Shown: positions 42,610 through 64,000 of the stretch, in pieces | How the letters are laid out: each line of letters opens with the position of its first letter | Numbering within the stretch: position 1 is the first letter of the stretch | Assembly: GCA_051362555.1 (NCBI GenBank) | Contig: CM120640.1 | Coordinates: 20,522,001 to 20,586,000 of the forward strand | DNA: 64,000 bases | Direction: 5' to 3' | Source: Lingula anatina | Lineage: Eukaryota; Animalia; Brachiopoda | Translations under genes and position numbers: made by a program | The notes under the pieces: generated by a model | What the model was told of the DNA's origin: nothing | Database searches by the model: none | What the model saw: the letters and a program-made list of their open reading frames with translations, nothing else

Positions 42610-45600
42610 ATGAAGATCCTGGAGGCGTGCTTTTTAGTTATTGTCATTACTGGTAAGCATAAAAAAGAAACTGTAGTATGAAAGATACCCCGTTTACGGG
42701 CCGTGCTACGGTACTGACATTAGGTCTGGTCGGGCAAATCGATTAGTTGTTTACGGGCTGGGTGTTATTTACCAATGTCAAAGGAAATGCGGCTACGCCT
42801 CCTAAGCTTTAGGCCGCCTCGGCATAGATCAACAAGGATAGCCCTACGCACATGTGTAAACTCACCTCTTTTGCAGTTAACATGAACTAAAGTAATGAAA
42901 TATTAAGTACCGTCAACCTCTGCATTTGTGTCTGTATGCTTTCTGTATGCTTTCGCAGTGAAATGCACGCGCGCACGCACACACAATTGAGTGTATTCAA
43001 AAAGACTGGAATGTAGGCCTACATGTATAATCTGGAATCAGATCTGTAGGCCTATGTAGGACCTGTAAAGCAAGCCCTTGATCAAACACAGGAAGGCGCT
43101 TTTGAAATAAGCGTTGGTTTAGATCATGGGGGAGGGGCAGCTGGCAGTGGTTAGATATTTCAAACAGTGTAATGTAGAAGGCGAATTGATGATAATGTGT
43201 TTCCAGTTGTTGGATGTCGATGATCAGTTTTTAAAGATAATCTAAGGAAAATATGATCCGTAGCCTATTGACACTATGTTGAGGAAAACACTAAAAGTCA
43301 TGTACAGGTCTTACAGGTGTTGATTTACGCTTATCCAAAATTATTGTAAATGCATTTAATGAGGCGGCCTTTGATAACCTCAAAAGGTGCTGCATGTGAC
43401 AGTTTTCTGCTGTGTGGTAACAACAAAATGCACTGGCAGGTCTTGGATTCAATTTTAGGGTGGACTTGTAATTATTATAATTATAATTTTATTTATTTAT
43501 TTATTTATTTATTTATATTGTTCTTTATATTAATCGTTCTTGGTGACATAAAACACCAACAGAAGATAATAATAACATGTAGTAACAACTTGACAGGGGG
43601 GTTTCAAACGTGTAGAGTCATTAAAGGAGATTTTTATTTTAGTACAAACTTTAAATTAGGCTTTTTATTTTGTTGTCAGGATGAAATTAATAGTTCACAG
43701 CTGGTGGTATGGGGTTCATCCAGTTTTGTGTCCATTGATTCATCAGATTTGAAATTTGAACATTTCCCACCTTAAAATTAAGTGCAAGTTAACCCCTTTA
43801 AAAATTTTGAATAATAATATTTTGGCAAATGGATGGCCCTGTTTGACACCAATGTATACACTAGTAAGGCACAAAAAATCTGGAAAAGCAATCACCAAAT
43901 ATAAAGGAATATAAGTAAACTTGAGACTACCACAAAAGACCACACAATTATTTTCAACTTTCAGTCACAAGAATGCTTATGCATAATACTTTTGTTTTCT
44001 GTTAGGACTTAAAAAATGGCCATGACAGATAGTTTTGGTTAACCAAAACCATTTTCATATTAAAAACACCAATTTCGACAGGCAGTATGAGAAAGAAAAA
44101 TAATACTAACAATTGATTAGTTAACATCATCAACTCAGAGTTACTGAACTAAATGCCTCTGCAGTAAGCACCTCTTTAGCATACCCATTTATATTATGTC
44201 ATTGGACAAGAGTTGCACACTCCTTTTGGATAAATTATTCCAAAATTTGTCAACTCTCTTGAGCTCAAAATGATCATCAGAGATTATACACATACATTTT
44301 ATCAACAATGTATTTCCATGGAATGTGTTGGAATTACATCTTGGTTTTATGCATATCTCATCAGAATATAAGAATAAGTACAACTAAAACAACCCACATT
44401 TCTTTAGTGAGCATTGCAGAGAAAATAACATCAAAAACATTATTTCCAGCTGTGCCTTCATTTTTGTTGTTGAGGCTATATATAACCCAGAAAAATACTT
44501 TTGATAAAATAAATTAAGATTTTCATTTTTTAAGCAAGTGTGTTTTTGTAAAGACTTATTTCTCATAATCACTAAATTAACATATCCTGACACATAAAAG
44601 GTCAGCTTTTATAGTAATATGCATATATTTTGCATCATATGCATATGTCCAGAAAACAGATCATTTACCATTTTTCAAAAAAAAAAAAAAAAAAAAAAAG
44701 GTGATGTACATTACATTGTCCTGTCACCTTTGACCATAGTCCAGCCCTTGTGACATGTGATAGACTACATGGCTACATGACCAGCACAGATTGCCACTGT
44801 TTTGAACAACTGCAATTAACAGCGAGCTCGCAGAATTCATGCAAGATTAATACATCCAGCATTGCTTTTACCTATCACCCACTGCTTTATGATAGGGTTT
44901 AGTGATTTTTCTTAATTACAGTGTCATGTGATGAATAAATGAAATGCCACCTCTGACCACCAGCCTCTTGGTTTATCATCCAGCATAAAAGAGAGGTGAA
45001 TGTAAAGATATATAAAAAAGAATCCCAGATTTTAAAGTTTGTTTTAGATATGATATCATGCATATGAAAGGGCAAGGAGGCACACGTGTGGCATAGGGCA
45101 TGTCACAGTCAATACAACTGCCTTTAAGAAGCCAACAAGCTGTTACTTGTAACATCTGAAAAGGATGTACAGAGCCCACCCTACCTATAAAACTGCAACC
45201 ATCTATTGATCCTACCATCATAAAGGAAGGAAGATGTTCTTGAATGACAATTGTTATTGTTAGATCTGAAAAAATGTTCCTGGATTATGGGATTATCTGT
45301 AAAAAGGAGCACCTTTTGGGGACTTACATTCTGAGACAGAGAAACAGTGAATATTTAGTAAGTGGAATGTGTGATTCTGTCATAGTTTTAATTTCTCAGA
45401 GATCAGGGGCGGATTTAGGCCGTCTTCTGGGTCTTCCGGAAGACGGTCAGATTTTCAAGTTTACATTGACGGGTATCTAATTTTTTTTGTCGGAAGACGG
45501 TCAAAAATGGAGGGTGGATTTATGAAAATAATTTGGAAGCCTGTGAGAAAATATCTCTGGATCCGCCCCTGTAGATAACTATATTTCTTGTATTACTGTC

Positions 45601-48600
45601 AATTTCATTTACTGCAAAATATAATTCTGTTGTATATGTAGCTTCTTGGGCATTTATTGGATGTAATATTTTATTGGTTTGTATTGTGGGCTCTGTTTTA
45701 ACTCAGTAAACCTATTTTTTTAGTCCCAGTTACTTTATAGCCTTTAGTGAATCTATAATTCCACTAACCCAGAAGAGATAAAGCAAAGAGAAAAACTAAA
45801 AGAACCAGCTAAACTGACAAAAAACACTGACTATTTTGACATGTTTTTTTATGGGAATCCAGCCAGACAACTCTCAGTAGGAACAAAAGAAACCAATACT
45901 TCTCTGTTTTTAGTCAAAGCATGCACTGTAGATGTCTTATTCTTTTAATTAAAGTGATGATGCAAGGGCTTCTTAAACACAAACAGTTGAGGTTGGTTAA
46001 GTTAGTATTGTGTGTTTAACCTCACTGCAGGGCCACATGGTTTGGTCTCTATAAAATGTGTGCTTTCAAAAAATGAATATTCAGTCTTGGAACTGTGGAG
46101 AGGAAATATCAGTATTGTAGTGTAGATTATCATTTTTACTGAAAAAGGGGTGAGTATATGGTGTAAAGGTACTAGCATATTTAGCATGTATCATATAGCT
46201 TGATTTCAAAAGATGGCCTGAACTGTGCTAAAATATCCCAGGTTGTGAAATTGGCTCACAATTTTTGCATTTTTGAAGGAATGCATATTTTTATTTATTT
46301 TTTGCTGAAGTTTTTTTTTCTAAAACCTCCATTTACATGTATCAATATTTAGGTTTATGTAGGTATAAATAACAGATTTTTTGTTTTTTTTAGCAGCTAC
46401 TGTAAACAGCAGTCCTATAGCAGATCATGACTTGTCAAATGAGAAAAGTGTTCACCGCAATCACCATCGAACACGACGGGCGACAGAAAATGAATACAGA
46501 CGGATGTCTCCATCAGACAGACCAAAATGCAAATCAGGCTCAACTGTAAGTTAAGTTTCAACCAAGAAATTTGTCATTTTAACATCATAATTATGTTCTC
46601 AAATGATGTGTATTCCAATGATATATCAGTTCCTGGCCTGGCCCAGTTTTTAGTGATTATTTAAAATCCATTGTGTGATAGAAATTAACTTGGCGTAGTG
46701 AAAAAGAAATAACAATAAAAGAAATGCAATTACGTGTACCTCTGTTTCAGATAATTTCGTTACAGAGTCGAGGTAGATTGCATTAAAAGGGTCAAAGTGT
46801 GGCAATATAATTTGTGTTGAACAGAAAAGACAGTGGTTGATAGGAAGATAACATAACTTAAGAAGTTTGATCAAGATAAGTTATCTTATTGCAAATACCT
46901 CTGTCCGTCATGTAACTGGGCAAAGAATTACAGACCATAAAAACATCTTATTTGTATGTGTAGGGGTAATGTGCTTGTAGGCAGGGGTGGGGTTACATTT
47001 CATGTTTGGTTGTGACATTTTCATTTCATAAGTATTAATTTAGCTATATGTAATAAGTTGAACTGATTCAACTATACTGTAAAGAGGCATTTTTAGTGTT
47101 TTTATACACTATTAGTTTAATCTTGGTTGAACCCAGGCCAGTTTCAATCAGTCAAAATTAAGCCACCTGACACAAGAACAGAACAATTAACAAGTAATTA
47201 AGCACTTTTAACCAAAGAGGTATGAATTAGTTAACTCTATTCCCATAAACATACATTTAGTCCTTGGTTGTAAAAATCATATAATCTGATTAAGTTGAAG
47301 AGTTTAGATCATTATAATTATATTGTTTATTTTAAAAAGTTGCTGCTTCATCTTGATTTTTTTTTGTCATTTGGCTTTTACATGATGTTTGTGAAGAACA
47401 GAAATACCCCCAAAGTTAATTTTTTACTTCATTTTACTTAAGCTTAGTTAATAATTTATGCAGCTCGTGTATTGTGTTCTGGCACTTGTAGAATTTTATG
47501 GCAGTGACTAGTAATTTTATCACTTAATATGCTTATTATATAACATGCCTTTAGACATGTACGCATAGCTTTAAAAATGACACACACACACACACACAAA
47601 AATTAAATATACTTCATTTTGCATTTAAATGTTAGTTTGCTCAGGGGTTGAACACTGTATGAGTACTTGATTAATTCATCCAAGTTTTTAAAATCATTTC
47701 TCAAAATATACATCAATGCAATTTCATCATCATTATAAAATTCCTGAAAAACTGACCATGAATTCAGTCAATCACATATATATATATATTTAAAAATAAA
47801 CTTCATTAAAACATATAGAGATGGGTAATAATATGATTTATTTAGATCCTCTTAGTTTGGTAGCACTGGCTTGTAGCCTGGATTGATCTCATGCTGAGCA
47901 CCAACATTCCAGAGTCTACTACATTGGTACCACTGGAATTCCACACCGTATATATAATGTTGATCCTTGCATCCTCTTTTGACCTTTTTCTCTCATTCCT
48001 GGAGGTAAAAAACAAAAACAGTGCTAAAAAAGGTGATAGGTAAAACAACCATCTGCAGATTTACCCCAATTATATTTGCTCCCTGCTGAACATACACAAA
48101 CAAGCCCCACTTGACCCTAATTGAATAGATAAAATGCAGTGACGTTGACGCCCATTGTTTTTGTGAAATGTCTTGAGGGGTCGCATGCTTTGTATGGTAA
48201 TGAAGCGGCATTTGTAAAGTTAATTTAGATTTTTTTTTGTGTCTGTATATCTAGTTGTATATTTTGACTGACAAGCTGAAGTAAAGTCTGTATTTCTTGA
48301 AGCATTGCATGGCCATCATCATCAGACAGTGGGAATCATAGCCCAAAAACTGGTTTAAAATGAAGTCAGGTTTTGTGGGATTTGGAAGAGAGCTAGTTCA
48401 GAAATACTTTTTATACATTATCTATATTTATTTTATATAAAAATATCACCTGAGAAAAAAGTTTTTTTTCACATAAATGTTAGTTGGACAAAAAAGGTAA
48501 TTTTTCTTTTTCTAATTTTCACAAGTCATACATGTATGGGAAGTTCTTCAGAAGGATAGCCCCTCCCTATCACATTTTCTCAGTAAGACATTTTTACCAC

Positions 48601-51600
48601 TCCCCCCCCCCACAAAAAAAAGGAAAAAAAACTTTTATTGTATAGAAAAGTTGTTAAAAGAGGTGCAAAAACTGCAATTCAGGCACATTAAATATTAAGC
48701 AACAATTTATCTATCCTGTACAATCACATAACTTACCCACTGTTATTCTAGATATGAGGACATGAATCTTTACACATAAAACAAAGAAAAAAAGTGACTA
48801 TCCTGTTCAGACAGGCACTGAATGTGTATCTTGCAGTTTTTTGGTCAGCTTGTAAAGTTCACTGGCAGGTCAGTTATGTACCAGGACATTCTATATAAAC
48901 CAATCTGTTTTCTTCTGCCTGCATAATATTCCTAACATTCTAAAAAATATCGTTTTTCTTCTTTTTTTCTTCTCACACTCCATTGAGTCTTTTAATGTGA
49001 TGTACATGCATGGTATTTCTTATTTGCCATTTTAGAAAAATAAGAAAGGTTTGTATAAGTATCTCAAACACAAATGGATATCTTTTTCAGATGCCACGGC
49101 CACCCAATGAAGTAAATACCACATCTCGTCTTCAGAAATTGCGGGCTTTGTTTCCAGCCTATGATGGAATTAAAGCTTACTACATTCCAACAGAGGATGC
49201 ACATCAGGTAAGTAAAGTGAACTCATACAGACACTCTTATCATTCAGACAATGTTGGTAATGGAATATGGGGGGATTTTAGCACTGTTGGACCCAGGGGT
49301 GGTGAACACAGAGGCCACATGACCTTCCCTTTATTAACTTAAGTGAAAGAAAAAAAAAACACACACACATGTAAAATTTTTTATAACAAGTCAAACCAAG
49401 CAATGTTTTCCATCCCACTACTCTATAGGAAAAACTCATATACCCCTTTATATAATACAGAAAAATGCTTGTCTGCAGCTTTATATTAACCAAGCTATAT
49501 GTGTATGCCTGTCAATTTTTTTGGTCCTTGTCAAGTTTGCCTAGGATTTATTCTACTGATAAAGCTGGCCCAACAGAGACCACAGTGACCTTTGGCTACT
49601 ATCTCAGAGTTTCAGGGGACACCCTTCTACTATCAACATGCCTATGTTGTTTAGATGGTTTTCAGTGTCCTCTGATACTCAGGATGCTGGTTACGGACCT
49701 CTATGGAGGAAGATGCATGATGTAATATGTGAATTTTCATCAGCACACATCTTCTATGTTAAATATGAAGCACTTGGTTTTCCATACAACTCCCAAATCA
49801 CTGTATTAGCACATTTGATAATTGGCTTCATCTGGTGAAGTCTGTGTTCTTCCCAAAAAATATAAACATTAATTTTTTTTTCAGAGTGAATATGTCGCTG
49901 CTCACGATGAACGGAGAGTTTATATTTCTGGTTTCTCAGGATCTGCAGGTAGTTTAAAATTTATATAGTTTTGAAAACACCATCATATTGGAAGTAAATA
50001 GATACCAGCATATATAATATGGAGTGTATTCTCTTTTCATGTGATATATTTTACTAGAACAAAAAAGTACTGTATGACATCAACAAGGGATTGACAATAT
50101 TCTGAAAAAGATATTTTCCCAAAAGATTAACTGTAAGTACATTTGTTAAAATTGCTGCTTTTGATCTGTCTGGCAAGTCATTTAATCAAATTGTCAGGTA
50201 AGGCATTTGATCAAATATTCAAGGAAGCAATTAAAATCAAGAAATTCCAGTTTTAGAATTGATCATCAGAGACCACATATTTAGTTACATACATGTGTAC
50301 ATGTGTAACAATTTTTGTCAATATTAATTGTTTGAATTGTGGCATGGCAAATATGCACATTTTTTATATAAATTAAAATTAAAGTTTTTATTCAAATAAT
50401 TCTTTTAAGAGCTTTGTGGTGTCAATATGATTTTCTTACTTTACCAGGCACAGCAGTTGTCACAGAAGACAAGGCAGCATTGTGGACAGATGGAAGATAT
50501 TTCTTGCAGGCTGAAGCCGAGCTTGACTGCAACTGGATCCTTATGAAACAAGGTATAATTGTATCCTTCTCCAAGACCTGAAGTTGTTCCTTGACCAGTA
50601 TTACAAAATGATTTATTGATCTACTGTACATTTACATTTGTTTTACTGTATTTTGCATGAAGTATGAAGCGTAGGCAAATATTAAGAGGTCTACAAATTA
50701 TAATTATCATTGTTAAAAGAACAAAGTCGTCATACATAGTAAGGACACATGTAGGTGACAATGCCAATGGTGAATTCCTGATTTTACATAAGTTATGTAA
50801 GTAGAAGTTGTTACTCACCATCCCCAACCCATTAAAATTGGCCTCCTAATTTTAAACAACTGAAACTCATTTTGAAATCTCAAAGCAAGTCCCAGACCCA
50901 TAGGAAAGGGGGGGGGGAGGAGGGTGTATATGAATAAATGATCAGTGATTAAAGACAGATTAACATCAAGCACTAGACAGAATATAATTTAATGACCTAA
51001 ATTACAGTAATAATGAATATGAAGGTATCGCTTTTAAAATCTGAATCCTATGGATAAATGTGTTTGCTGTTATAGTTGATGTATGTGTGCTGGAAAGGCT
51101 GCAGTCACGTTGCATATGTAAATTTGTATGTTCATCTGCAAGGTGAAGTGCTGTCCTTCGTGCGCACTGTGAACTGCTGCACAGGTCAGTGCACGTACAA
51201 AACATGATGCTCCTTAAAAAAAGGTGGAAGACATATATAAATGCAGCTGTAGGTAACATTTATGTATAGAGAAGTATAAGACATAACGAGAAATTTGACT
51301 TTGTTAAAAATTGACAGATGAAATGTTGGAACAGTCTGTCAAAGTTTGATTACCCAGAGGGGTCTGCTAAAACTTCCACAAAATAATACCAGTTATTTTT
51401 TATTGAAAAATAACAGGGAACAGTAAAACACTATCATAATTTTTTGAATGAGGCTTTTATTATATAATGGTTATTTTAAATGTTCATCCAAAATTGTATA
51501 TGATTACTTTATTGAATGGCGCATGTTTTGTGTCTACCATTTTTTTTTTTGGTGAAAATATAATTTGATTAAATCCCTGCAGTGTGACATTGTAACAACT

Positions 51601-54600
51601 TTTTGCTTTTGTTCAAAGATGCCTTTTACCTGTGCAGGTGTTGATACTGTGTCATCTGCAAGGTGAAGTGGTGTCCTTGAACTCACAGTACTAACAACAA
51701 TACTGTGGTGGTGGTACTAACCAGCAGAGGACAGATCTTTTGCCATAAAATATTTGATAAAAGAGAAAAAATTTAGTTCAAAAATAAAAAATAAGTTAAT
51801 GAACGTCTTCCCCAACAGAAGTCTCTTTAATAACCCAAAGTCACATAAATTCAAAGTCACATTTGATTGGAAAAAATTACAATGTGACTGCACATTATAA
51901 ATTAAAATGATTTTTTTTTTTTTTTTGGTAATCAAAACTATGTTATTGTCATTAATATGCAGAAATAACAAATCAGCGTAATGCAATCAACAAGCCCTAT
52001 TTAGTAGCCATTATCTTTAGTTGAACCTGCATGCATAGGCACATGAGCTTGGGGAGGGGGCGTAGGCTAAGTTGCTTACCCCCTCTCCCTTTTACACGAA
52101 TGGTTAGTCCCCACTTCAAAGTTTCCAAATACGCATCTATGCATGTAGAGCTTCTAAATACAAACAACACTTTCCTTATCTTTGCACAAGAACTAGCAGA
52201 ATTCATTATAATAGCAAGTATTATGACTTTTATGAACTAATATATACTGTAGAGCATTACTAACCCTTATATAATGTTCAAGTAGAGCATGAGTAGTTTA
52301 TGCACAGCTTCACATCATGGCATCTTGAATAAGAGGCAAACAACTGCCAGATGTAAAGCTGTTTGTATGCTGCTTTACCTATCTGCTTTTTTTTAGATTT
52401 AAACTAACCAGCCCCTGCTTTAAGAACTACATGTAGGACTATTAGTTTCTGCTTTTAGGCCAGAGAAACCAATTAGCACTCATAGGATCTAGGATCATGA
52501 AGATTAAATCTGCTTTTGGACGATTCTTAGGACCAAAACAACAGCATGCTTTTTACTCTACAACCACTATAAATCTATAATTTACGTGCATTAAATATCT
52601 GCTTTCATGCCTAAAGCTAATTTGGAATCCTTTTAAAAACTTGCACAATATGCTATAATGGTGTAGTCTTAGGTTGCTAATAAAAATACTTCAAGTCTGA
52701 GAAAAGACTGAAATCAATGATACAAATAAATCAAAAATCAAAGTAACCTAAATTTATTTTCTAATTGGGGCTTCTTGAATTATAATTGTTTCAGCAGGCA
52801 TTGATGCATTACAGCAGTCATGTAACTTTTTTTTTTACAATTCCAGTTACTGGTATTGACAGGATTTTTGAATTCCTAACTTAAAGACTATTGAATTAAA
52901 TAATTTTTCAAATAAGCCCAAGGCATTAATGCAATAGTTCTCTTCTTGTCCTCAAAAGACATCCATCAGATTAAATTAACTGAACATTAAAAGAAAAATA
53001 AAGGAACTAATATTTTACCTCACAGCTGCTGTTGCCGTACAGTCAGATGATGACATTAAGGCGTGAGATACATAAAGTCAGAAAGTCTTAAATGGAAAAT
53101 TATGCAGCATTTACATAAAAATGACATTTGGCATTTATTTCTGTTCTCTTTGATCTGTGACAGTTGGAGGAGATCATGACTGCATGATCCATGTTATTAA
53201 GCATGGGTGTGGTCAACTGTATGACCACCAGCTGACCTGTTGCTACATGTCCATTCAAACAAGATGTATTCATTTAGGTTTCTCCTAAAATCCAATCATG
53301 ATTATTTCTCATCATGGAATTTAGTATTTCATATTTGATTACTTTAATTAAAATTTAATTATAATTTAATTTTTGAAAGAGTACATGTTTGTGACTATCC
53401 TACATTATTTTGATGTTGAACAATTTGAATGGATCAGTAAATAATAATAACTCCTGAATATTTTTTGGATCAGAATTATCAGAAATGACAAACAATTATT
53501 AACATCAAATTCATATTTTTAAATAGATATGAAAATGAAATTTAAGTGATTTTAACTATTATTACTTGATTGTATTTTCTCATGAAGTATATATGGGTTT
53601 ATATAATTTTAGAGCTAACAGAAACTTTTTCAAGCCTGAAAAGTGGACTGAATATTTTCAAGGAATGCATAATATGTCATATATAATACTGACCTGTAAT
53701 ATGTTGAATATCATTAAGTAAGGTTTTTACTAAAAGTTGACCTGATTCCAGGGGAGACTGGAGTCCCTAGTTCAACGGAATGGCTTGGCAGTCTTCTATC
53801 AGCTGGGGACAAGGTGGGAGCCAATCCTATACTCATGCCTATAGGTAATTTATACAGCCTAGGGTCATCCTGGCATGTCTTTCTGTTCTTCAAAAAAGTT
53901 ATAATAAAATTTGTCAAAAATAAATTAACGATTAGAAAATATTTAAACTTTACATAGATCACGGTTGGCATTTAATGAAAATATTTTACGGTAACAATGA
54001 GTTGGCACCATCAGGTGGAGATGACTAACTGTTTTACAGCTTGAATTATACGACCTTCAGGTTCAAAGAGGAGAGATACAAAAAAGCACTACCATTGCTC
54101 CAATTTTGTTTTCTGTTTTCTGTCGTGGTGGCACATCTTTTTCTGTTTCATGGTATTTGTTATGTGAAACCATATTAAAAATGAAACCATTGAAAATGTG
54201 GGCTGGTTATAAAGGACCATTCCCATACACTATCATACTAACTGTGGAGCGATCTCTCTCCAAAGGGATTCTCACTAAATTGTAATAAACTTAAGTGGCC
54301 TAGATGTCTGTCACACCTACTGAAGCTGCTAAGGGGCAATTAATTATTGTTTAGCAGCTTCAGTAGGCATGCCAGACATCTAAGCTGTTTAAGCTGAAAG
54401 CAATTTAGAGAGAAACTCTTTGGAGAGGGATCAAGCCTGTTAGATCGATTTAGGTATGGGAGTCACTTCTAACTCTCTGTAACAATCAAAACCATATTGA
54501 ATACATATTATCTCCCCAATTGTATCTAAACATTTTTCAGTTTACATTTCAATTAGTCAAATATTGTACTGATTTCAATATTCTAAAAAATTATCAAATA

Positions 54601-57600
54601 AGTCAGCTTTTGATCTGTTGTTTGTTTTCAGACAACTGGCAGGTTACTGAAAGTAGACTGAAAGACAAGAGTATCAGCCTGATTGGGAATTCCACTGACC
54701 TCATTGATGAAATATGGCCAGGCTCTGACAGACCAGCTTTTCCTAATGGAGACATCATTATTTTGAATATTACATTTTCTGGTAAGAGAGGGGAAAAAAC
54801 AAAAAATCCACCCCTAAGAAATAAATAGTATATGTCAGTTTTCTTTTTTTCACAGTTACCTGTAACTTGATAACATTACTTTTAGCATAAGTAGATGAAA
54901 ATGTCCTGTAGCATATTTCAGTAGATTGCAGTTAACAAATTAATGATACAAAACTATACAATGTCATTTCATAATGTATCCTATACTAATTTCAAGTTCT
55001 AATTTCTGATCTTGCTGTTTTTTCCCCTATAATCTAAGTCTTAAATCAAATAAAGATTTCTGTATTTTAAGGCAAAAGCTGGCAAGACAAAGTGATAGAG
55101 CTTCGCAAGAAAATGGCAGACAAGAACACCCGTGCACTTTTTGTTACAGCTTTGGATGAAACAGCATGTGTGTTTTAACTCTAAAAGTTTAAAACAAAAA
55201 TTACATTTAATTGCTTTTATTATTATTATTATTATTGTTGTTGTTGTTAAAATAATTGCTCGAAGAAAGAATAAGGAATTGGGCATTTATCTAAAAGAAA
55301 ATTTGTGATTGATGGTGATCATGTTGTTGTTTAAACTTAACTGACATAATATTATACAATAGGATATGATATAATATAATATAATATAATATAATATAAT
55401 ATAATATAATATAATATTTGGTTAAAGATGTTATTTTGTGATTCCTGTATGTTTTGTGCAAAAATCAATTCAACTACATATTTTTAGGGCTGTTCAATTT
55501 ACGAGGATCCGATATTGCCTATAATCCATTTTTCATCTCATATGCCATTGTGGAAGAAAATGATGTCAAGTTAGTATGCCTCTCTATTTGGTGTCATAAA
55601 AATGCCAGACATGTTATCTTATGGGGTGAAAATATGCCTAAATCAAAATTTTAATTTTTTTAGAAATGTATTAAATCCAAAGATTAATCATGCTAATATT
55701 TCTAAACACTGTTCAAGTCCATGGCAGTTGGTTTGAGTTAATACATATAAGATTAGAACAAGTACATATTCTCAATAGTCTTTAAAGTCTGTCTGATGAA
55801 ATTAGAGTACCTGTGGCCTTCTGCCCCATTGGCAACTGTCTGAACACTACAAACTGTTTCAGAAGCTATAACTTTCTGTGCAGTGCAACCTAATTCAAAA
55901 TACTGTAACACATAAATTGGTATTGAATTAAGGATACCGAAATAAAAAGAAACGCATATAAATAACCACTATTCATGGAACCTATAGGTAAATAAATTCA
56001 AAGATCAGATACATTTTGGCCATGTTGTACAGAAATACACATGTACCATCTTAGCACACTAAGGGCTAAATTGCTTCAACCTGTCAGCTAATATTTAATT
56101 CCAAAGGTATTTTGCAGGTTCTACTTGAGTAATAAGACTGGTCGTCTGACCCCAAAGATTGCTGATCACCTTAATACAGGAGCTACAGGAGATTGTACAG
56201 ACAAAACTGGTATTTGTGTTCAGGTAAAATAAAAGCAGTTGTATTTTTATGATAAAAATATTATTTATTGTCACTTATTGAGGAACGGAATGTATTCTAC
56301 AACTTCCTCTATCAAGCTTTCCTTTTCCTTAAACTTAAAAAGAAAGTTCACCTATTCAAAAAGGTATGAAGCCATTCAGTTTTCAAGGTGCTGTCTGTTT
56401 GGATAAAAGAATCATTCTTTCAGCCCTTTAAGGCCCAGTCTTTCATCTGAACTAAAAATGAACTAAAATTGTGTAACATCAAAATTAAAAAAGTCAGACT
56501 CATTGTTTGACAGTGTCATAGATCAAAAAATGTAATTCCAGAAAAATATTCATATTCTTCTTTTTACAGGTGAAACTCTATGAGGATGCTCTCACTGACA
56601 TGCAGACTCTTAACAATATTAGCTCCACAAAGAAAGTTTGGATCAGCCCAGCCTCCAGCTATGCTGTTTATAGTAGCATACCAGCAAGCCAGGTATTGAA
56701 AGAGAGATCTCCTATTCAACTTTTGAAGGCTGTTAAGAATCAGGTGGAGAGAGATGGATACGAAAGATGTCAGGTGTGTAAAAATTTATATTGTGAAACT
56801 TTTTACAGGTGACAGAGTGGTACATTATGTAAAGAGGTGTTTGTGCTAAATCCAAAAAACATACGGTAGTTAAAAAGGTTTTTAAAAATCAATTGGCATA
56901 AAATTGAACATATCATCCTGTGGAATTCAACAACATTTTGTATGCATGTTTTTCTATTTCACTATTTATTTCAGAAAAAAGTACCCAGAAAATTTTTGCA
57001 GTAACCTATTTTGACTAGTATAAACACCAAAGGATGTTAATTTAGTAGGAACACCAGACAAAATCTCAGAGAGAAAAGAATTGAATAACACATTAATTTT
57101 TCTCCTAAATTGTTTATTCTTATAAATCTTTTCAGATAAGAGATTCAGCTGCTTTGATAGAGTTTCTTGCCATGTTGGAGAAGGATGTAAGTAGATGAAC
57201 ATATAAATGACATATTACTTGTACATATAGATGAAAGCACATAATCTTTCTTCAAGTGATGTATAAGTTCTTTACTAATGAGATGCAATTATTATATATG
57301 TAATATCATTTTTAAGTGAATGACATAAAATAATAAAATACGAGCCAGGTGGCAATGCCTTTTTTTTATACAGGCTTGGATTTTTTCTGTTTATCCTAGG
57401 TAAAAAGTGGTAGTAAACAGTGGAATGAAATTTCTGCTGCAACTAAATTAGAAGAGTACAGACGGTAAGATTTTATACAGTTCCTTCCCAATTCAAAATA
57501 CTAGACTTGATACAAATAAAAGACTTAAGTGTGAAACAGAATCACAGTTTATTATCTTAATTAAGGTGGTTCAATACATAAAATGGCCTAAATTGGTTAA

Positions 57601-58200
57601 AAAAGCCTTTTCCTTCTCCTTTCTTATTAAATTAATAAAAACACGTTTGGAGCAAAACTTCCCTTTTTCAGTGTTTTATCTACCACCCAACACACATCTA
57701 TGTATCATCAAATATAGTTGCAGTTACAGAAATTGTATTTCATAAAAAAACATACTTGACTTTCTTTCAGGATGCAACAGTACAATATGGGCCTGAGTTT
57801 CAACACCATATCAGCAGTGGGCTCCAATGGTGCTGTCATCCATTATTCCCCAGCACCATCAACCAACAAGGACCTTACAACAACTGAGATGTATTTGCTG
57901 GACTCTGGTGGACAGTACTTGTAAGTCCCATGTACTGGAACACTGGTTCCTTAGGACTGTTCAGACTGACACCACATGCACATGTTGGCTCAACTTAGGT
58001 CACCAGATTACAAGTTTACAGTGATCACACACCCCGTTGTATATTTGGCCCTTCTGAACGTTCTTTTTAAGGAATGTCCTTCTGAAGTAAGGAGTGCTAG
58101 TAGCTCTCAGTCATTAAAAGAGTTATGAGTTATGAAAAGTCATGACAATTTTGAGTACAAAAGCAACAAAATCCAAATCCTTTGCAGCTCATTTTATCAC

Positions 58201-58231
<31 letters not shown>

Positions 58232-61200
58232 AATTTTGGAATTATCAGACAAATTTGAAGAGATAGCTACAAATTGTGGTCATATGGCCTGGTGAGATAG
58301 TAAAGTTCTAAACTAAGTTATTGTTGCTGGACTGGAAATGGCTTTTAAATTTATTAATAAAAATATTTCTGTATTTCAGAGATGGCACTACAGACGTCAC
58401 CAGGACCTTACACTTTGGGACCCCCACTGAGAAGATGAAACAGGCCTACACCCGTGTCTTAATGGGTGCTATTAATTTGGCTATGATGATCTGGCCAGAG
58501 GGAACATACGGTAAATATAATACTTTGTTACTCACTTTCTTTTACAAACTATGAAATATATTTTTCATCATGAGAAAAAGATTGCTTTCAAATTTTCATT
58601 TTAATGAAGAAAAAGATTGCTTTCAAATTTTCATTTTAATGAAAATAAAAAAGTGAACTCTTTTAACATCTTGGTGTGATCCATTCTGTAAATCTCCAAG
58701 TTAAATTCCACTTTAAGCAACACATTTACATCAGTGGACAAAATAGAAAGAACTTCTTGGTGATATTATTGAAAATATTTTAGTCAGTTATCGAGTTTTT
58801 TTCTTATTTATTTTATTGTCAAAAGGCCGTGAAATAGACTCTGCTGCAAGGGCACCACTGTGGTCATATGGATGGAACTATCGTCATGGCACTGGACATG
58901 GAATTGGAGCATTTCTCAGTGTTCATGAGGGTGAGCTGTCTTTAGGCTTGGTATTCATATGTGTGTTACAACAACCCTGAATTTCAAAGCAGGCATTCAG
59001 TCACTGAGTTTAACCAAACTTAATTTCATTCACAAGTCCAGTAAACAGCTGGTTTGTTCTATTGCACTTTAATCATCAAAAACAGTGAGTAATTTACCCA
59101 TTTTGAAACTCAGGTTTAGTTAACAGGTTTCTTTCTAGCATCATTAATTTTTCATATACAGAGACTATGTGTCTGTATATATTCTGATCACCATTTCTGT
59201 CCAAGTTGTCATTGTCCTACACATCTGTGGTCCTCCCTATAATTGCCAAACCATAATTTTCTAAATTAAAATTTAATAAAGATTTTTATTTGATGAAAAG
59301 CAATGTTGAGTTTTAAAAATATGCATAATCCTATTATTTTTTATGAAATAAATATACAATATTTTTTGCATGCATATTTGCAACATTTTTCCTGTTTGTT
59401 GTCTGTATATTTTCCAGCTTTGCTGTCTATTGTGTATACATATTTGATGGGGGAAATATTAAAATATCTCCTATGAAAGAAATATTGAAACAGTTACTCA
59501 TTTCAGTTCTTCATGAAGAATGTGAAATACAAAGCTTTTTAAATTTATTTTTGTAAAAAGAATTGAAAATCATAAACTATTTAAAATTCTGTTTCATTTA
59601 AATAGTTTTATTATGTATTGTTACAACAATGTCATTAACTTCTTTCATTATTTAAATGTCACTTTTAGGTTATGTCTCATATTTGACTTGATATCTCATT
59701 TCTTTTAGTTACATGTACAGTATTTTTTATCATTGAATATGATTTTACTACAATTTTCCTTATGTAATCTGATGTAAGTTCTGTAACATGAAATGATATG
59801 CTCTTAGATGCTGCCAAATCAGAGAACATTTTACTTAGTATAGATGCTTAATCAGGCTTTTTAATACTTCATTTCTGTCATCTGATAGTGTTTATATCCT
59901 AATAATTATCTGATATATGCAAAAAAACGTGTTATATCTGAACAATGCATTCTTTTCAGCATGAAAATCACCATGATACTCTTTCAAAGCTCCATTTATC
60001 TTGCAGTCTTACATCTTATATATATAACGCTTGTTCTACCCAGGTCCAGGCAGAATTTGTCTAGGATCAGTGTGCCCAGTACCCTCTACAAGAAGTGCAC
60101 TTTATGAACACATGTTCTTTTCTGATGGTATGGTATGGCATATGTAAATATGTATAATTATGTTTTTTGTATGTGTGGGTCACAGAAAGTCCTTCTGTAA
60201 ATTCATCTCTGATGCAAACAATGTGGGGAGCTAACATGGATGTGTGTGGTAATGGTTTCACACCACAGGAAGATACAGTGTGTGTAGATGTACTTATCAT
60301 GCAACTATATGTACCATTGCCCAGGCCATAATAATCTTTGGATGACAGAGGGAATAAAACTGACATTACAGCCACAGTGTTATGTGCACAGTAGCACCAG
60401 TTGGTCAGGGCTTCGTATCTCGAAAGGTTCGCTATGTTGCGCACGTGTGTTAGTGTCTCGATTCCATAACCGATTCTATTTCGAGATACGGGGCCATGAA
60501 ATCGAGACTCACTTGCACATATGAGCCCAGATTGTAGCATTGTGTTTGTTTGGTTGTGTTGGTGCACTGTTTCCAGTGTTTGCTCTCTTACTATCTTTGG
60601 GGAGCAACATCAGGCATGAAAGCAAAGCATGGATGTGTATTTTTGCATTCCTTATTTGAATGTTTTTTATATTCACTTGGAGAGTGAAATTTTCATATTG
60701 GGAAAATTTATTTAATCCTTGAAATTAGCAATTTAAATTACCAAAAGTCAAAGGAATAATGCAGCACATGTACTGCCAATGAACTAATTTAAAACAAATC
60801 ATTTACAACTTTTGCACATTAACTCAATTGCTATATATTGAAAAAAAAAGACTTTGCACCAACAAATCAAATAGATGGAACACTAACAAGAATTCATCTT
60901 AACATAAAAAATACTAACCTGTTAAATTACTCGAAAGCTTAACTGACATGAACAGCATAAAGTTAACATATAACATGGTCCCATGGTCCAAAAGTAATTG
61001 GACAAAACATGCACTCATAGTCAAGACAGGAAGACCTGCTGTTAAAGTACCCACATGTATCAACATTTTGTGCAAACATTGTGTGAAATTTTGTTCCACC
61101 TTGTTTGAAGGAGGGATCTACCAGGGACGTGTTTTTTAAAACATGCAGGAAATACTCCGATTATACAGCTTTTTGTCTTGTCATGCTGAAATGTGATGAA

Positions 61201-64000
61201 ATATGCACTTTCTTTCACGAACTTTGAATAACTTTATTTATCATATGAGAAAAGTTGCTTTCAAATTTTCATATACTTTTTTATCATCTTGGTGTGATTC
61301 ACTTAGTTAATCTTAAGTTAAATCACTAAATTAGTAGCACTTTTGCCAAAGTTCTTGTTGATATTATTATTTCTTATTGTCAAAAGGTCATGAAATTGAA
61401 AGGAAGTACCTTTAGTACACCCTGTATGTTTGGGAATTTTGTTTTGAAAAATTGTATAAATTTAATACTTATTCCAAACACCACAATTATGACAAGTTCA
61501 AAATGCCTTCATTTTCACCTAATCCAAGAAAGCAGACACATATAAACAAGAAAAAAGTGAATTAGAATAAACTGATTAATGAAATTGACCTGCACTCCTT
61601 GTTACAAAGAACCTCCAAGCAAACTTAAACTGTATCAGTTATATATTAGGGCAGTCATTGGCTTTCCGAATACATGTTCAGATGGAATCCATATTAATTG
61701 GCATTCATGGGCAACAGCAGATAGGCACAGGTGATAGCTACAACTTGCAAGTATGTAAGCAGCCTATACCTGTATTACAAGTTGGGAAATAACCCAGTGA
61801 TCATGCAGCTACATGCATCTCCAATACACAAACATCATTTTGGCTACTTCCAGATATCAAGCCATAGATCCTGGGCTGGTAGTGCATCCTGTCCAAGAAA
61901 TAAGACAAAAAGTTACGTACCCTCATATCTGTTAGAGTCACTATTATTTCAGGATATTGGGCTCTCATTGCAGCATTTCCAGCAAAAGTTCAATGGAACA
62001 AATCTCTTACCTGGATCTAGGACACATGCCTCATAGACAGTCATTAGCAACACAAAGGAGCAAGCTTCTAGAATTTGAATCAATGTGCTCAATTTGTTTT
62101 GTCCAATTTCAGGTCCCCCATATACTGTTTATAAAGCATATAGTGCACGGGATGGTCCTTTTGCTGCTGGCATGTTTTTGTCAATTGGTATGTTTCTTGT
62201 CAAATATTCTGACAAGATAATGCATGGTCTTGCTGTCTTCCCAATTCTCTTTGGCTGGTCCTTATGCAATTGCAATGGCAAAGAAATATCACTGACTCAA
62301 AGTGGGCATCCACATAACAATGCTAATACCACACTGTATAATAGTGGATATAGCTATTTGCAATGTTAGCACTGGCCGCACACACCAAATGCCTGTGAAG
62401 TTGCCCAAAGCTGGGCTTGTAGGCCTAATTCTTTTAAAGTTTGTTCAGTAACTGGCCAGTGTCTACTTATGGCCATTTGATTCCTTGACTCTGATGTCCC
62501 CAAGGGCACAGACTGATAAAGACTTGCCTGGATCAAAGGACAACACCTATACTGTACTTATATAGAGAAAGGACTGCTGTTTGTCCTGGTACAACTAGTG
62601 TCAGATCTTGATTGCAACCAAGATTTCCACATGTGTAAAATGGAAATCAAAAAGCATGGTGCCTTCAAATTTTGAATTGGTTCTTGGTTATTACCTACTG
62701 GAGTCAATTACATACAGATTATGAAGGTTTCAAGGATGAATTAAAGCAATGCAAGAACATTACTGAATGCAGTAAAGCCATGTCTTTGAAGGAGCAAGTT
62801 GAATTCATCCTTTGGACAAGTGCTTTTTTAACTAAAATTTCTCTTCTCTCCCTAACCTATATACCTGTTATCCCTTGACAAATTACTTTAATTTTGCATG
62901 AATGCTTTCCAAATAAAAAGTTTAAGCTTTACTAACATTTAGTTGCCAATGTTGGCCCTGCCTGCAGAAATTGCTACTATGTTGGCCCTGCCTGCAGAAA
63001 TTGCTACTATGTTGGCCCTGCCTGCAGAGGAAAAAATGGCTTGTTTTACCTCTGCCCAGGGAGTTCGCTAGTGTGTCTTCAGGAAAATAACAACTAACAT
63101 GCATGTTTATAGGGCCAGCAAGCATTTCCTCTGGTACTAGCCCTTTGCGATCCCCACTATATGAAGGAATGTTTTTGTCAGATGGTATGTAAAGAATAAT
63201 ATGTTTGAAATATTCTGGTGGAAGTTAAAACTAGTTACAAATAGAATTTTAAATGAAAGCTGTTCAATGTCAAACACAATTAATAAAATTTAAAGCATCA
63301 TTGGCATCTTCAACTATGTTTGACAGCCAGCTAAGACTATTCAGACATTTATATTAAATAAATTCACTTGGTAACCTTTCTCATTATCAACAAAATATAT
63401 ACAATGGGTAGAATTAACCATACAGAAGTAAATGTTTGTTTAAATGTTATTTACTAAATACTATCCCATCTCTAACATACATGTTCACTATGCTTAAATG
63501 GTCATTTCAAATTTCAGTTCAGTTTTGATTTATTTAAATATTAAGATGAACAGCTCATTCTAAATTGTGTAAGATACCATGATATCATTATCATGTTTTT
63601 CCTGTTCTTGGTTTTGTGTGAAGATTATTACACTATAGTACTGATTAATATTTCATATAATTTTTCTAACTTGAATATGTACATATATATATTACAAATA
63701 CCCACTATTTGTATCTACATGCACACCTTTACAACTACCTTTTGTCTCATTGCAGAACCAGGTTACTATGAACCTGACCAGTTTGGAGTCCGTCTAGAGA
63801 CTATAGTCATGGTGGTCAAAGCAAATACACCAGTAAGTAATTTTGGGCAAGATGCTCTAGTATAGTATCAGGAATCATCTCCCTTTTTAACACATTTAAA
63901 ATAACTGCAAACAAACATGTCAAAAAAAAAAAAAAAGAGTTGTTTACAGCACCATTTGTATTACATATTGAAATGGGCTGTTATATTTCAGAACAATTTT
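42610..64000 (+). CDS. XPNPEP1/2-like: Xaa-Pro aminopeptidase (aminopeptidase P, peptidase M24B), signal-peptide-bearing XPNPEP2-like form; 3' end outside window
   Basis: Frame-consistent exons: 42610-42652, 46394-46545, 49091-49207 (IPTEDAHQ), 49885-49948 (SEY...ISGFSGSA), 50448-50552 ([12 protein letters not shown]), 53752-53844, 54632-54781, 55072-55167 (TALDETA), 55488-55569 ([14 protein letters not shown]), 56118-56223, 56570-56773 (LKAVKNQVE), 57136-57186, 57400-57464, 57771-57920 ([17 protein letters not shown]...LLDSGGQY), 58380-58510 (DGTTDVTRT), 58826-58930 ([17 protein letters not shown]), one of three alternative exons, 63756-63832 (EPGYY...FGVRLE), 63992-end. All five metal ligands (D, D, H, E, E) are present. 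Confidence 0.95.
45404..45571. mobile_element. MITE with CAGGGGCGGAT...ATCCGCCCCTG terminal inverted repeats in aminopeptidase intron 1
   Basis: Perfect 11-bp TIRs; flanks gagat / tagat (5-bp TSD with one mismatch); internal duplicated cggaagacggtca. Confidence 0.8.
54221..54461. mobile_element. Fold-back (palindromic) MITE-like element in aminopeptidase intron
   Basis: Arms tcccatac...gatctctctccaaagggattctcactaaattg...tagatgtctg...cctactgaagctgctaa and ttagcagcttcagtagg...cagacatcta...caatttagagagaaactctttggagagggatc...gtatggga are reverse complements around a short spacer. Confidence 0.75.
55368..55417. repeat. (ATATA)n microsatellite
   Basis: About 10 pentamer units. Confidence 0.9.
60044..60127 (+). 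CDS. Aminopeptidase P alternative exon A ([28 protein letters not shown])
   Basis: cccag|GT acceptor, GATG|gtatgg donor, 84 nt, phase 1-1, joins VHE-G to E-PGYY in frame. Confidence 0.88.
61206..61400 (+). pseudogene. Decayed duplicate of the aminopeptidase intron 58533-58825 and the start of exon 58826
   Basis: cactttctttcacgaactttgaa...atgagaaaagttgctttcaaattttcat...catcttggtgtgat...ttattgtcaaaag|gtcatgaaattga matches 58533-58839 (...ttattgtcaaaag|gccgtgaaataga); reads GHEIE versus GREID and then hits a stop. Confidence 0.75.
61994..62024 (+). promoter_or_regulatory. Putative splicing selector I (antisense to exon A 3' splice site), ~90 nt upstream of exon B
   Basis: taggaca (62018-62024) pairs with tgttcta (60032-60038); cctggatc (62010-62017) with ggtccagg (60043-60050); acaaat (61998-62003) with atttgt (60055-60060). 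Function is inferred. Confidence 0.6.
62113..62187 (+). CDS. Aminopeptidase P alternative exon B ([25 protein letters not shown])
   Basis: tttcag|GT acceptor, ATTG|gtatgt donor, 75 nt, phase 1-1, same GP...MFxS boundaries as exons A and C. Confidence 0.88.
62504..62543 (+). promoter_or_regulatory. Putative splicing selector II (antisense to exon A 3' splice site), between exons B and C
   Basis: aggacaa (62537-62543) pairs with ttgttct (60031-60037); ttgcctggatc (62524-62534) with ggtccaggcag (60043-60053); gggcaca-ga-ctgat (62504-62517) with atcagtgtgccc (60066-60077). Function is inferred. Confidence 0.65.
62949..63028. repeat. 30-bp tandem repeat (atgttggccctgcctgcagaaattgctact) x2.7 upstream of alternative exon C
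   Basis: Identical units starting at 62949, 62979 and 63009. Confidence 0.95.
63113..63184 (+). CDS. Aminopeptidase P alternative exon C ([24 protein letters not shown])
   Basis: ctaac branch-point-like motif, tttatag|GG acceptor, GATG|gtatgt donor, 72 nt, phase 1-1. Confidence 0.88.

Follow-up and report, generated by a model that had tools for sequence, protein, structure and literature searches.

Three tandem exons, apparently used one at a time in spliced RNA, probably vary a prime-side loop of an aminopeptidase P in the brachiopod Lingula anatina

A stretch of 64,000 nucleotides from Lingula anatina (NCBI GenBank assembly GCA_051362555.1, contig CM120640.1, positions 20,522,001 to 20,586,000 of the forward strand), referred to in full as the window, raises the question of what an aminopeptidase P gene does with three neighbouring exons, here called A, B, and C, that appear to encode the same short piece of its catalytic domain. 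The explanation favoured here is that tandem exon duplication would have produced three homologous copies of one exon, that each spliced RNA takes up a single copy, which one depending on the sample, and that the choice is presumably regulated by tissue or stage through splicing factors. The products would be three isoforms, likely held at the cell surface by a putative GPI anchor, which have all metal ligands in common and differ in a loop predicted to line the prime-side groove (S2' to S4'). They would likely prefer different Xaa-Pro peptides, the residues at exon positions +4 (Arg, Tyr, and Ser in A, B, and C, respectively) and +7 (Leu, Tyr, and Ser) being the probable determinants. That three live exons are spliced either-or is very highly probable; given such splicing, a real difference in peptide preference appears likely, and the explanation as a whole is probable.

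The exons of RefSeq L. anatina isoform X1 were placed by tblastn at 42610 to 63832 of the window (Table 1), and the peptide of a constitutive exon shares 98% of its residues with xaa-Pro aminopeptidase 1 of Lingula anatina. Of 569 residues compared in 16 constitutive exon spans, 26 are changed, ruling out that the window is the RefSeq assembly itself. The protein carries the precomputed Pfam domains PF01321, PF16189, PF00557, and PF16188, amounting to two creatinase-like domains and a pita-bread catalytic domain, and retains the metal ligands Asp, Asp, His, Glu, and Glu (D487, D498, H561, E600, and E614, numbered as in isoform X1) together with the two substrate histidines (H467 and H570). As judged from its sequence, it is a three-domain eukaryotic aminopeptidase P (M24B), for which Xaa-Pro cleavage is predicted. 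Inspection also revealed a signal-peptide-like N-terminus and a hydrophobic C-terminal tail (model helices 2-18 and 700-720), and the Lingula protein fell outside the cytosolic clade with an SH-aLRT support of 100 in a midpoint-rooted tree of 33 proteins, calculated with the swapped segment removed and from a sequence set lacking vertebrate XPNPEP2. Because of the N-terminal hydrophobic helix, the hydrophobic tail, and the place outside the cytosolic clade, the enzyme is likely of the secreted, GPI-anchored type and not of the cytosolic XPNPEP1 type, human XPNPEP2 being the GPI-anchored form of aminopeptidase P. Elsewhere in the gene, RefSeq isoforms X1 and X2 are distinguished by a single Ala at residue 15, which falls on the first exon border (near 46393), as a tandem acceptor would give, and a MITE-like inverted repeat with 82-nt arms that are 80% complementary lies at 54251-54432.

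Table 1. Features of the Lingula anatina aminopeptidase P locus, in window coordinates.
Feature	Position	Strand	Remarks
Aminopeptidase P (M24B) gene	42610..64000	+	Continues beyond the right edge of the window; mapped by tblastn with isoform X1 of RefSeq L. anatina
Constitutive upstream exon	58826..58930	+	Metal His561 and substrate His570
Alternative exon A	60044..60127	+	84 nt, 28 codons; Arg at +4, Leu at +7, two Cys; reads, RefSeq X1, 28.3 bits
Partial duplicate	61206..61399	+	Copy of intron, acceptor, and first bases of the upstream exon (58533-58838); blocks 79-88% identical
Alternative exon B	62113..62187	+	75 nt, 25 codons; Tyr at +4, Tyr at +7; reads, RefSeq X3, 9.9 bits
Alternative exon C	63113..63184	+	72 nt, 24 codons; Ser at +4, Ser at +7; reads, RefSeq X4, 29.8 bits
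Constitutive downstream exon	63756..63832	+	Completes the metal-ligand Glu600 codon; carries Glu614

Exons A, B, and C had been described in an earlier note on this DNA, and re-reading of the letters bore out its coordinates, translations, phase 1-1 borders, and splice sites (AG before and GTATG after each exon), as well as a Glu codon split between the alternative exon and the downstream exon starting at 63756. The introns around the cassette measure 1113, 1985, 925, and 571 nt (58930 to A, A to B, B to C, and C to 63756, respectively). The three isoforms which that note had deduced also exist as automatic RefSeq L. anatina models: X1, X3, and X4 (XP_013414157.1, XP_013414159.1, and XP_013414160.1) carry A, B, and C, respectively, and differ from one another solely at residues 574-599. 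Between the window and RefSeq, the cassette is changed at 0/28 residues in A, 1/25 in B, and 0/24 in C, a total of 1/77 as compared with the 26/569 of the constitutive spans. An assembly artefact was ruled out, the exons being too divergent and all three being present in reads and in a second assembly; an allelic rather than exonic origin was likewise ruled out in Lingula, as all three lie in one contiguous sequence.

A profile of the family, built from 185 distinct non-Lingula segments and searched in six frames over the whole window, ranked exon C first, A second, and B third (scores in Table 1). In 20 whole-window shuffles, the best scores ranged from 5.0 to 10.7 bits and exceeded that of B in three. 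Exons A and C are far beyond chance by the profile and B is not; exon B is established by reads and its RefSeq model instead. The three are adjacent, mutually homologous (B only weakly so by profile), of the same phase, and of similar length. No fourth copy was found in the window by the profile, its next match reaching 7.6 bits outside the intron, nor was any found among 33 rule-based candidates, in a scan that was not exhaustive since it missed C with its weaker pyrimidine tract.

Several smaller features accompany the exons. A second in-frame AG at 60050, six bases into exon A, would remove the first two residues if used and was not seen in reads. A 30-nt unit repeated 2.6 times (62949-63038) ends 75 nt before the acceptor of exon C and might affect the use of that exon. 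The partial duplicate between A and B runs into a stop after about nine codons and is matched by four reads of RNA run X6 with two differences and no listed joint; it is a relic of local duplication and, as far as seen, no coding alternative. Short intronic repeats at 60405-60518 and 59388-59430 draw numerous reads of either strand that stem from other transcripts, and are likely dispersed elements.

The position of the segment in the enzyme was then read from solved structures of the family. The swap covers residues 572-599, between the substrate His570 and the metal Glu600, with all of the metal ligands and both of the substrate histidines listed above lying outside it. Aligned from the invariant His-Glu and Glu-Pro-Gly, it corresponds to G500-D522 of human APP1 and to residues 498-521 in C. 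elegans. In Mills et al. 2026 (PMC13100289), human Gly503/PfAPP Ser658 is assigned to S2', the latter at 6.3 A from the P2' ring with no direct contact, and human Tyr506/PfAPP Pro661 to the S4' C-loop. Gly503 is equivalent to exon position +4 and Tyr506 to +7, at both of which the three Lingula exons differ (Table 1). In C. elegans, the C-terminal residues of apstatin are directed at loop residues 505-509, the loop being solvent-exposed and disordered (PMC4404410). According to Weaver et al. 2014 (PMC4213023), R370 of E. coli PepQ and R371 of PepP read the substrate C-terminus and set the peptide length; from the E. coli gene sequences, R371 is at +8 and R370 at +23, both in the homologous stretch between the substrate His and the metal Glu. 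Mapping to solved structures bears out the earlier placement of the segment close to the active site, between substrate His and metal Glu, and predicts it to be a prime-side (S2' to S4') substrate loop. A long side chain at +4 might reach the substrate, and Cys577 and Cys582 of exon A may form a disulfide.

AlphaFold models of isoforms A and B have a mean pLDDT of 92.3 and 92.7, respectively, and contain the same elements, the fold being kept; the best Foldseek match of model A was human APP1 (3ctz; E 5.6e-75, TM 0.92 by target). Within the loop, the pLDDT blocks are 74 and 69 for A, whose middle (69-74) is the lowest in the domain, and 80 and 87 for B. Conservation within the catalytic domain is lowest in the middle of the segment, with a mean top-residue frequency of 0.31 as compared with 0.67 and 0.59 in the flanks.

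That orthologues might hold the same cluster had been put forward as a check, and the cassette was indeed encountered in other animals. Among 30 protein clusters, chosen mostly for having several members, 10 contain isoforms that swap the segment, spread over five phyla as protein database models: Lingula, Mya, Littorina, Pomacea, Babylonia, Watersipora, Macrobrachium, Oratosquilla, Branchiostoma floridae, and B. lanceolatum. For species other than Lingula, these are protein models and not DNA, and the origin from one locus was taken from isoform numbering. No swap was seen in the other 20 clusters, including Mytilus, oysters, scallop, chiton, limpet, abalone, octopus, two nemerteans, and jellyfish, absence from annotation being weak evidence. 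A scan of metagenomes for animal loci that contain the exon cluster in genomic form returned 80 loci, all of them giving one near-contiguous block to the 78-residue query and hence intronless genes or transcripts. Both the breadth of the cassette across animals and the likely secreted, GPI-tail type of the enzyme go beyond what the earlier note knew.

In all six lophotrochozoan sets, Arg at +4 in one exon is matched by an aromatic residue in another (Tyr, Tyr, Phe, Phe, Phe, and Trp); the three snails have one origin, and the six sets therefore represent four lineages. Two versions of the segment have been maintained across four caenogastropods and across amphioxus species, the amphioxus copies differing at only four residues with both kinds recurring between species. 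In crustaceans, a 23-residue loop is swapped with one of 14 residues, and each of the two lengths is also encoded by separate genes. Two consecutive segments are present in the models of Nucella, Elysia, Scylla, and Penaeus, through either faulty prediction or true co-inclusion; the Scylla and Penaeus records break off soon after the second one, as would be expected of transcripts that were mispredicted or incompletely spliced. The segment is missing altogether from models of Sinanodonta and Darwinula, and the models with two or zero segments confirm the same exon borders. In a tree of the exon peptides (26 columns, 5 of 42 inner branches supported), the Watersipora pair, the amphioxus pair, and the snail Phe type each group within their own lineage with support, for which reason the tree favours repeated exon duplication; a single origin of Lingula A, B, and C is neither supported nor rejected on the same 26 columns (p-AU 0.129).

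Other parts of the enzyme also vary between isoforms. Those of Mytilus and Mya swap an exon with the S1' histidine, at about 438-476, and those of Mytilus, Saccostrea, and Argopecten vary a stretch at about 516-541; Mytilus has variants of both, in all four combinations. Branchiostoma isoforms swap a 47-residue stretch of domain 2 (186-232), one model having both versions (P0195/P0193). Doubled or longer models from Macrobrachium (1431 aa, P0003), Mytilus edulis (1441 aa, P0163), and Rhopilema (3363 aa, P0211) are tandem genes merged by annotation or true fusions.

By analogy with PepP and PepQ, a wider proposal can be offered, tentatively and with considerable doubt. Animals would have duplicated this exon repeatedly, such that the Arg-loop form anchors the C-terminal carboxylate of short Xaa-Pro peptides in a prolidase- or tripeptidase-like manner while the aromatic- and Ser-loop forms accept long peptides such as neuropeptides, placing the PepP/PepQ division of labour inside one gene. 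Brachiopods, snails, clams, and bryozoans would each have arrived at this on their own; shrimps and amphioxus would have doubled the exon in parallel, and bivalves would have gained additional active-site exons that can be swapped.

A different reading accepts that the exons are either-or and holds that what sets the isoforms apart is not peptide preference but another property, be it stability, response to pH or metal, a dimer contact, or resistance to inhibitors or to other proteases, or that they are near-equivalent copies kept by divided expression. The tolerance of the segment middle for many sequences, the exposed and disordered loop of C. elegans, and the closeness of the amphioxus copies would all suit such a reading, but it fits less well with the near-constancy of each version between the Lingula assemblies, with the retention of two versions in four caenogastropods and in amphioxus species, and with a recurrent change from Arg to an aromatic residue at a subsite position. 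We regard it as unlikely, and a difference in peptide preference remains the preferred reading.

Whether RNAs do use the exons singly was examined by aligning reads to 58300-63880 from four of the nine listed runs (X1, X4, X6, and X7), which come from three studies and were sampled at 6-25% of each; a junction was listed with at least three reads from two starts. Entry from the upstream exon was seen in 10 reads for A (five from RNA run X1 and five from X7), four for B (run X7), and 15 for C (five from run X7 and 10 from X6). Exit to the downstream exon was seen in 19 reads for A (10 from run X1 and nine from X7), four for B (two each from runs X6 and X7, visible solely in the letters read between joints, owing to an allelic difference close to where the exon ends), and five for C (two from run X7 and three from X6). 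Run X4 has almost no coverage of the gene. All six of the junctions predicted in the earlier note (58930 to 60044, 62113, or 63113, and 60127, 62187, or 63184 to 63756) were thus recovered, in a total of 57 reads, with each exon joined to the same flanking exons; the case it had named as contrary, in which just one exon is ever spliced in, is not what the reads contain.

No A-B, A-C, B-C, or skipping joint is listed beside the 57 cassette junction reads, at low depth and with the threshold of three reads; at this depth and threshold, co-inclusion in up to about one-fifth of A transcripts is compatible with the reads. Use of the exons depends on the sample: run X1 has depth only on A, run X6 only on B and C, and run X7 on all three. 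Distinct read starts on A against B/C number 11 vs 0 in run X1 and 0 vs 13 in run X6 (Fisher p 4e-7), counts in which mates of one fragment were possibly scored at both ends and which come from runs differing in study and library type. Runs X1 and X6 have alleles in common in the adjacent exon, and tissue or stage is for that reason a likelier cause of the difference than strain.

The exon with the fewest junction reads is B (8/57), and it could be argued that A and C are the working pair while B is minor or decaying, occasionally spliced and yielding a weak or inactive enzyme. Its chance-level profile score and its long branch in the exon tree lean the same way, as do the variants among those listed and in the junction letters of the reads: three of six in exon B change a residue (3-5 reads each), and the single variants in A and in C are silent. 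Against this, exon B is spliced in two runs of different studies and its RefSeq model, from another assembly, has one change in 25; its frame is open and its splice sites canonical in all versions seen, the model of isoform B is confident across the loop (block pLDDT 80-87), and the exon ends in an Ile-Glu form also found in C. elegans APP-1 and amphioxus. A decaying exon B is accordingly judged improbable, and B is retained here as the third live member of the cassette.

What, then, keeps the exons apart? The frame stays open in each of the eight possible combinations, from no cassette exon to all three, and reading frame and NMD are therefore no barrier: neither enforces exclusivity here. 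Docking helices between introns were sought in the Lingula window alone by ungapped pairing of the four introns (6 pairings), and none rose above the best of eight shuffles. A steric model would need a branch point within about 50 nt of the donor of the upstream alternative; the introns between the copies are long, at 1985 nt (A-B) and 925 nt (B-C), and the scan for branch motifs covered the 100 nt before each acceptor. That exactly one exon must enter each mRNA, as had been proposed, stands in so far as no double or skipping joint is listed, at low depth only, and falls short in that no enforcing signal was found. Choice of exon by regulated splicing factors is our default inference, in line with the dependence on sample. 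The absence of a frame or NMD barrier, of short introns, and of a docking helix, together with the two-segment models of four other species, would equally suit ordinary cassette exons under a strong but leaky preference, with double inclusion leading to doubled-loop enzymes, which we nevertheless consider highly improbable as no double-inclusion joint accompanies the 57 reads, none of the five RefSeq Lingula isoforms has two segments, and the two crustacean two-segment records end soon after the second one.

With either-or splicing retained as the preferred reading, the locus is a clear example of exclusive splicing with no rule set by frame, NMD, or visible docking elements. What animal aminopeptidase P prefers on the prime side has been mapped only poorly, and the cassette is a natural experiment in that one scaffold bears three loops with its ligands fixed. 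An invertebrate cell-surface peptidase may even be tuned combinatorially by splicing, for digestion or the breakdown of peptide signals, given that the same exon is doubled in five phyla and that bivalves swap two other exons of the catalytic domain. The class of tandem homologous exclusive exons is already known, and automatic annotation includes the Lingula isoforms; no earlier description appears to exist of the connection with the substrate loop, of the recurrent switch from Arg to an aromatic residue, or of the breadth across animals. No paper on alternative exons in aminopeptidase P was found in the literature searched, which left subscription journals mostly outside, and supplements or exon databases could list such isoforms.

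Among known systems, the exon clusters of Dscam1, Mhc, 14-3-3zeta, and MRP are governed by docking sites and selectors. They resemble the Lingula cassette in having more than two tandem alternatives and long introns, whereas no ungapped pairing above shuffled controls was found among the Lingula introns. The RefSeq models X1, X3, and X4 of L. anatina hold the same three segments of the same protein but are automatic and named after the cytosolic enzyme, no description of exclusivity, loop role, or conservation having been found with them. Homologous mutually exclusive exons at functional sites (PKM1/2, PFKP, fly CRMP, and CG42249) were treated by Lam et al. 2021 (PMC7954323), in whose main text and six supplementary files aminopeptidases or XPNPEP are not mentioned; there, too, tandem homologous exons leave the fold intact and alter residues close to a functional site, whereas the Lingula cassette has three members and doubling of this one exon extends over five phyla. 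In E. coli PepP and PepQ, the stretch from His to Glu carries an Arg reading the substrate C-terminus and setting peptide length (PMC4213023), but these are two genes of two-domain fold with the Arg at +8 or +23, as opposed to a splicing switch in a three-domain enzyme with Arg575 at +4 as the candidate for such a role. Alike in architecture are human XPNPEP1 (3CTZ), C. elegans APP-1 (4S2R/4S2T), and P. falciparum APP, which share the three-domain fold and all ligands; each has one version of the loop, whereas the Lingula gene has three and its protein adds a putative signal peptide and a hydrophobic tail.
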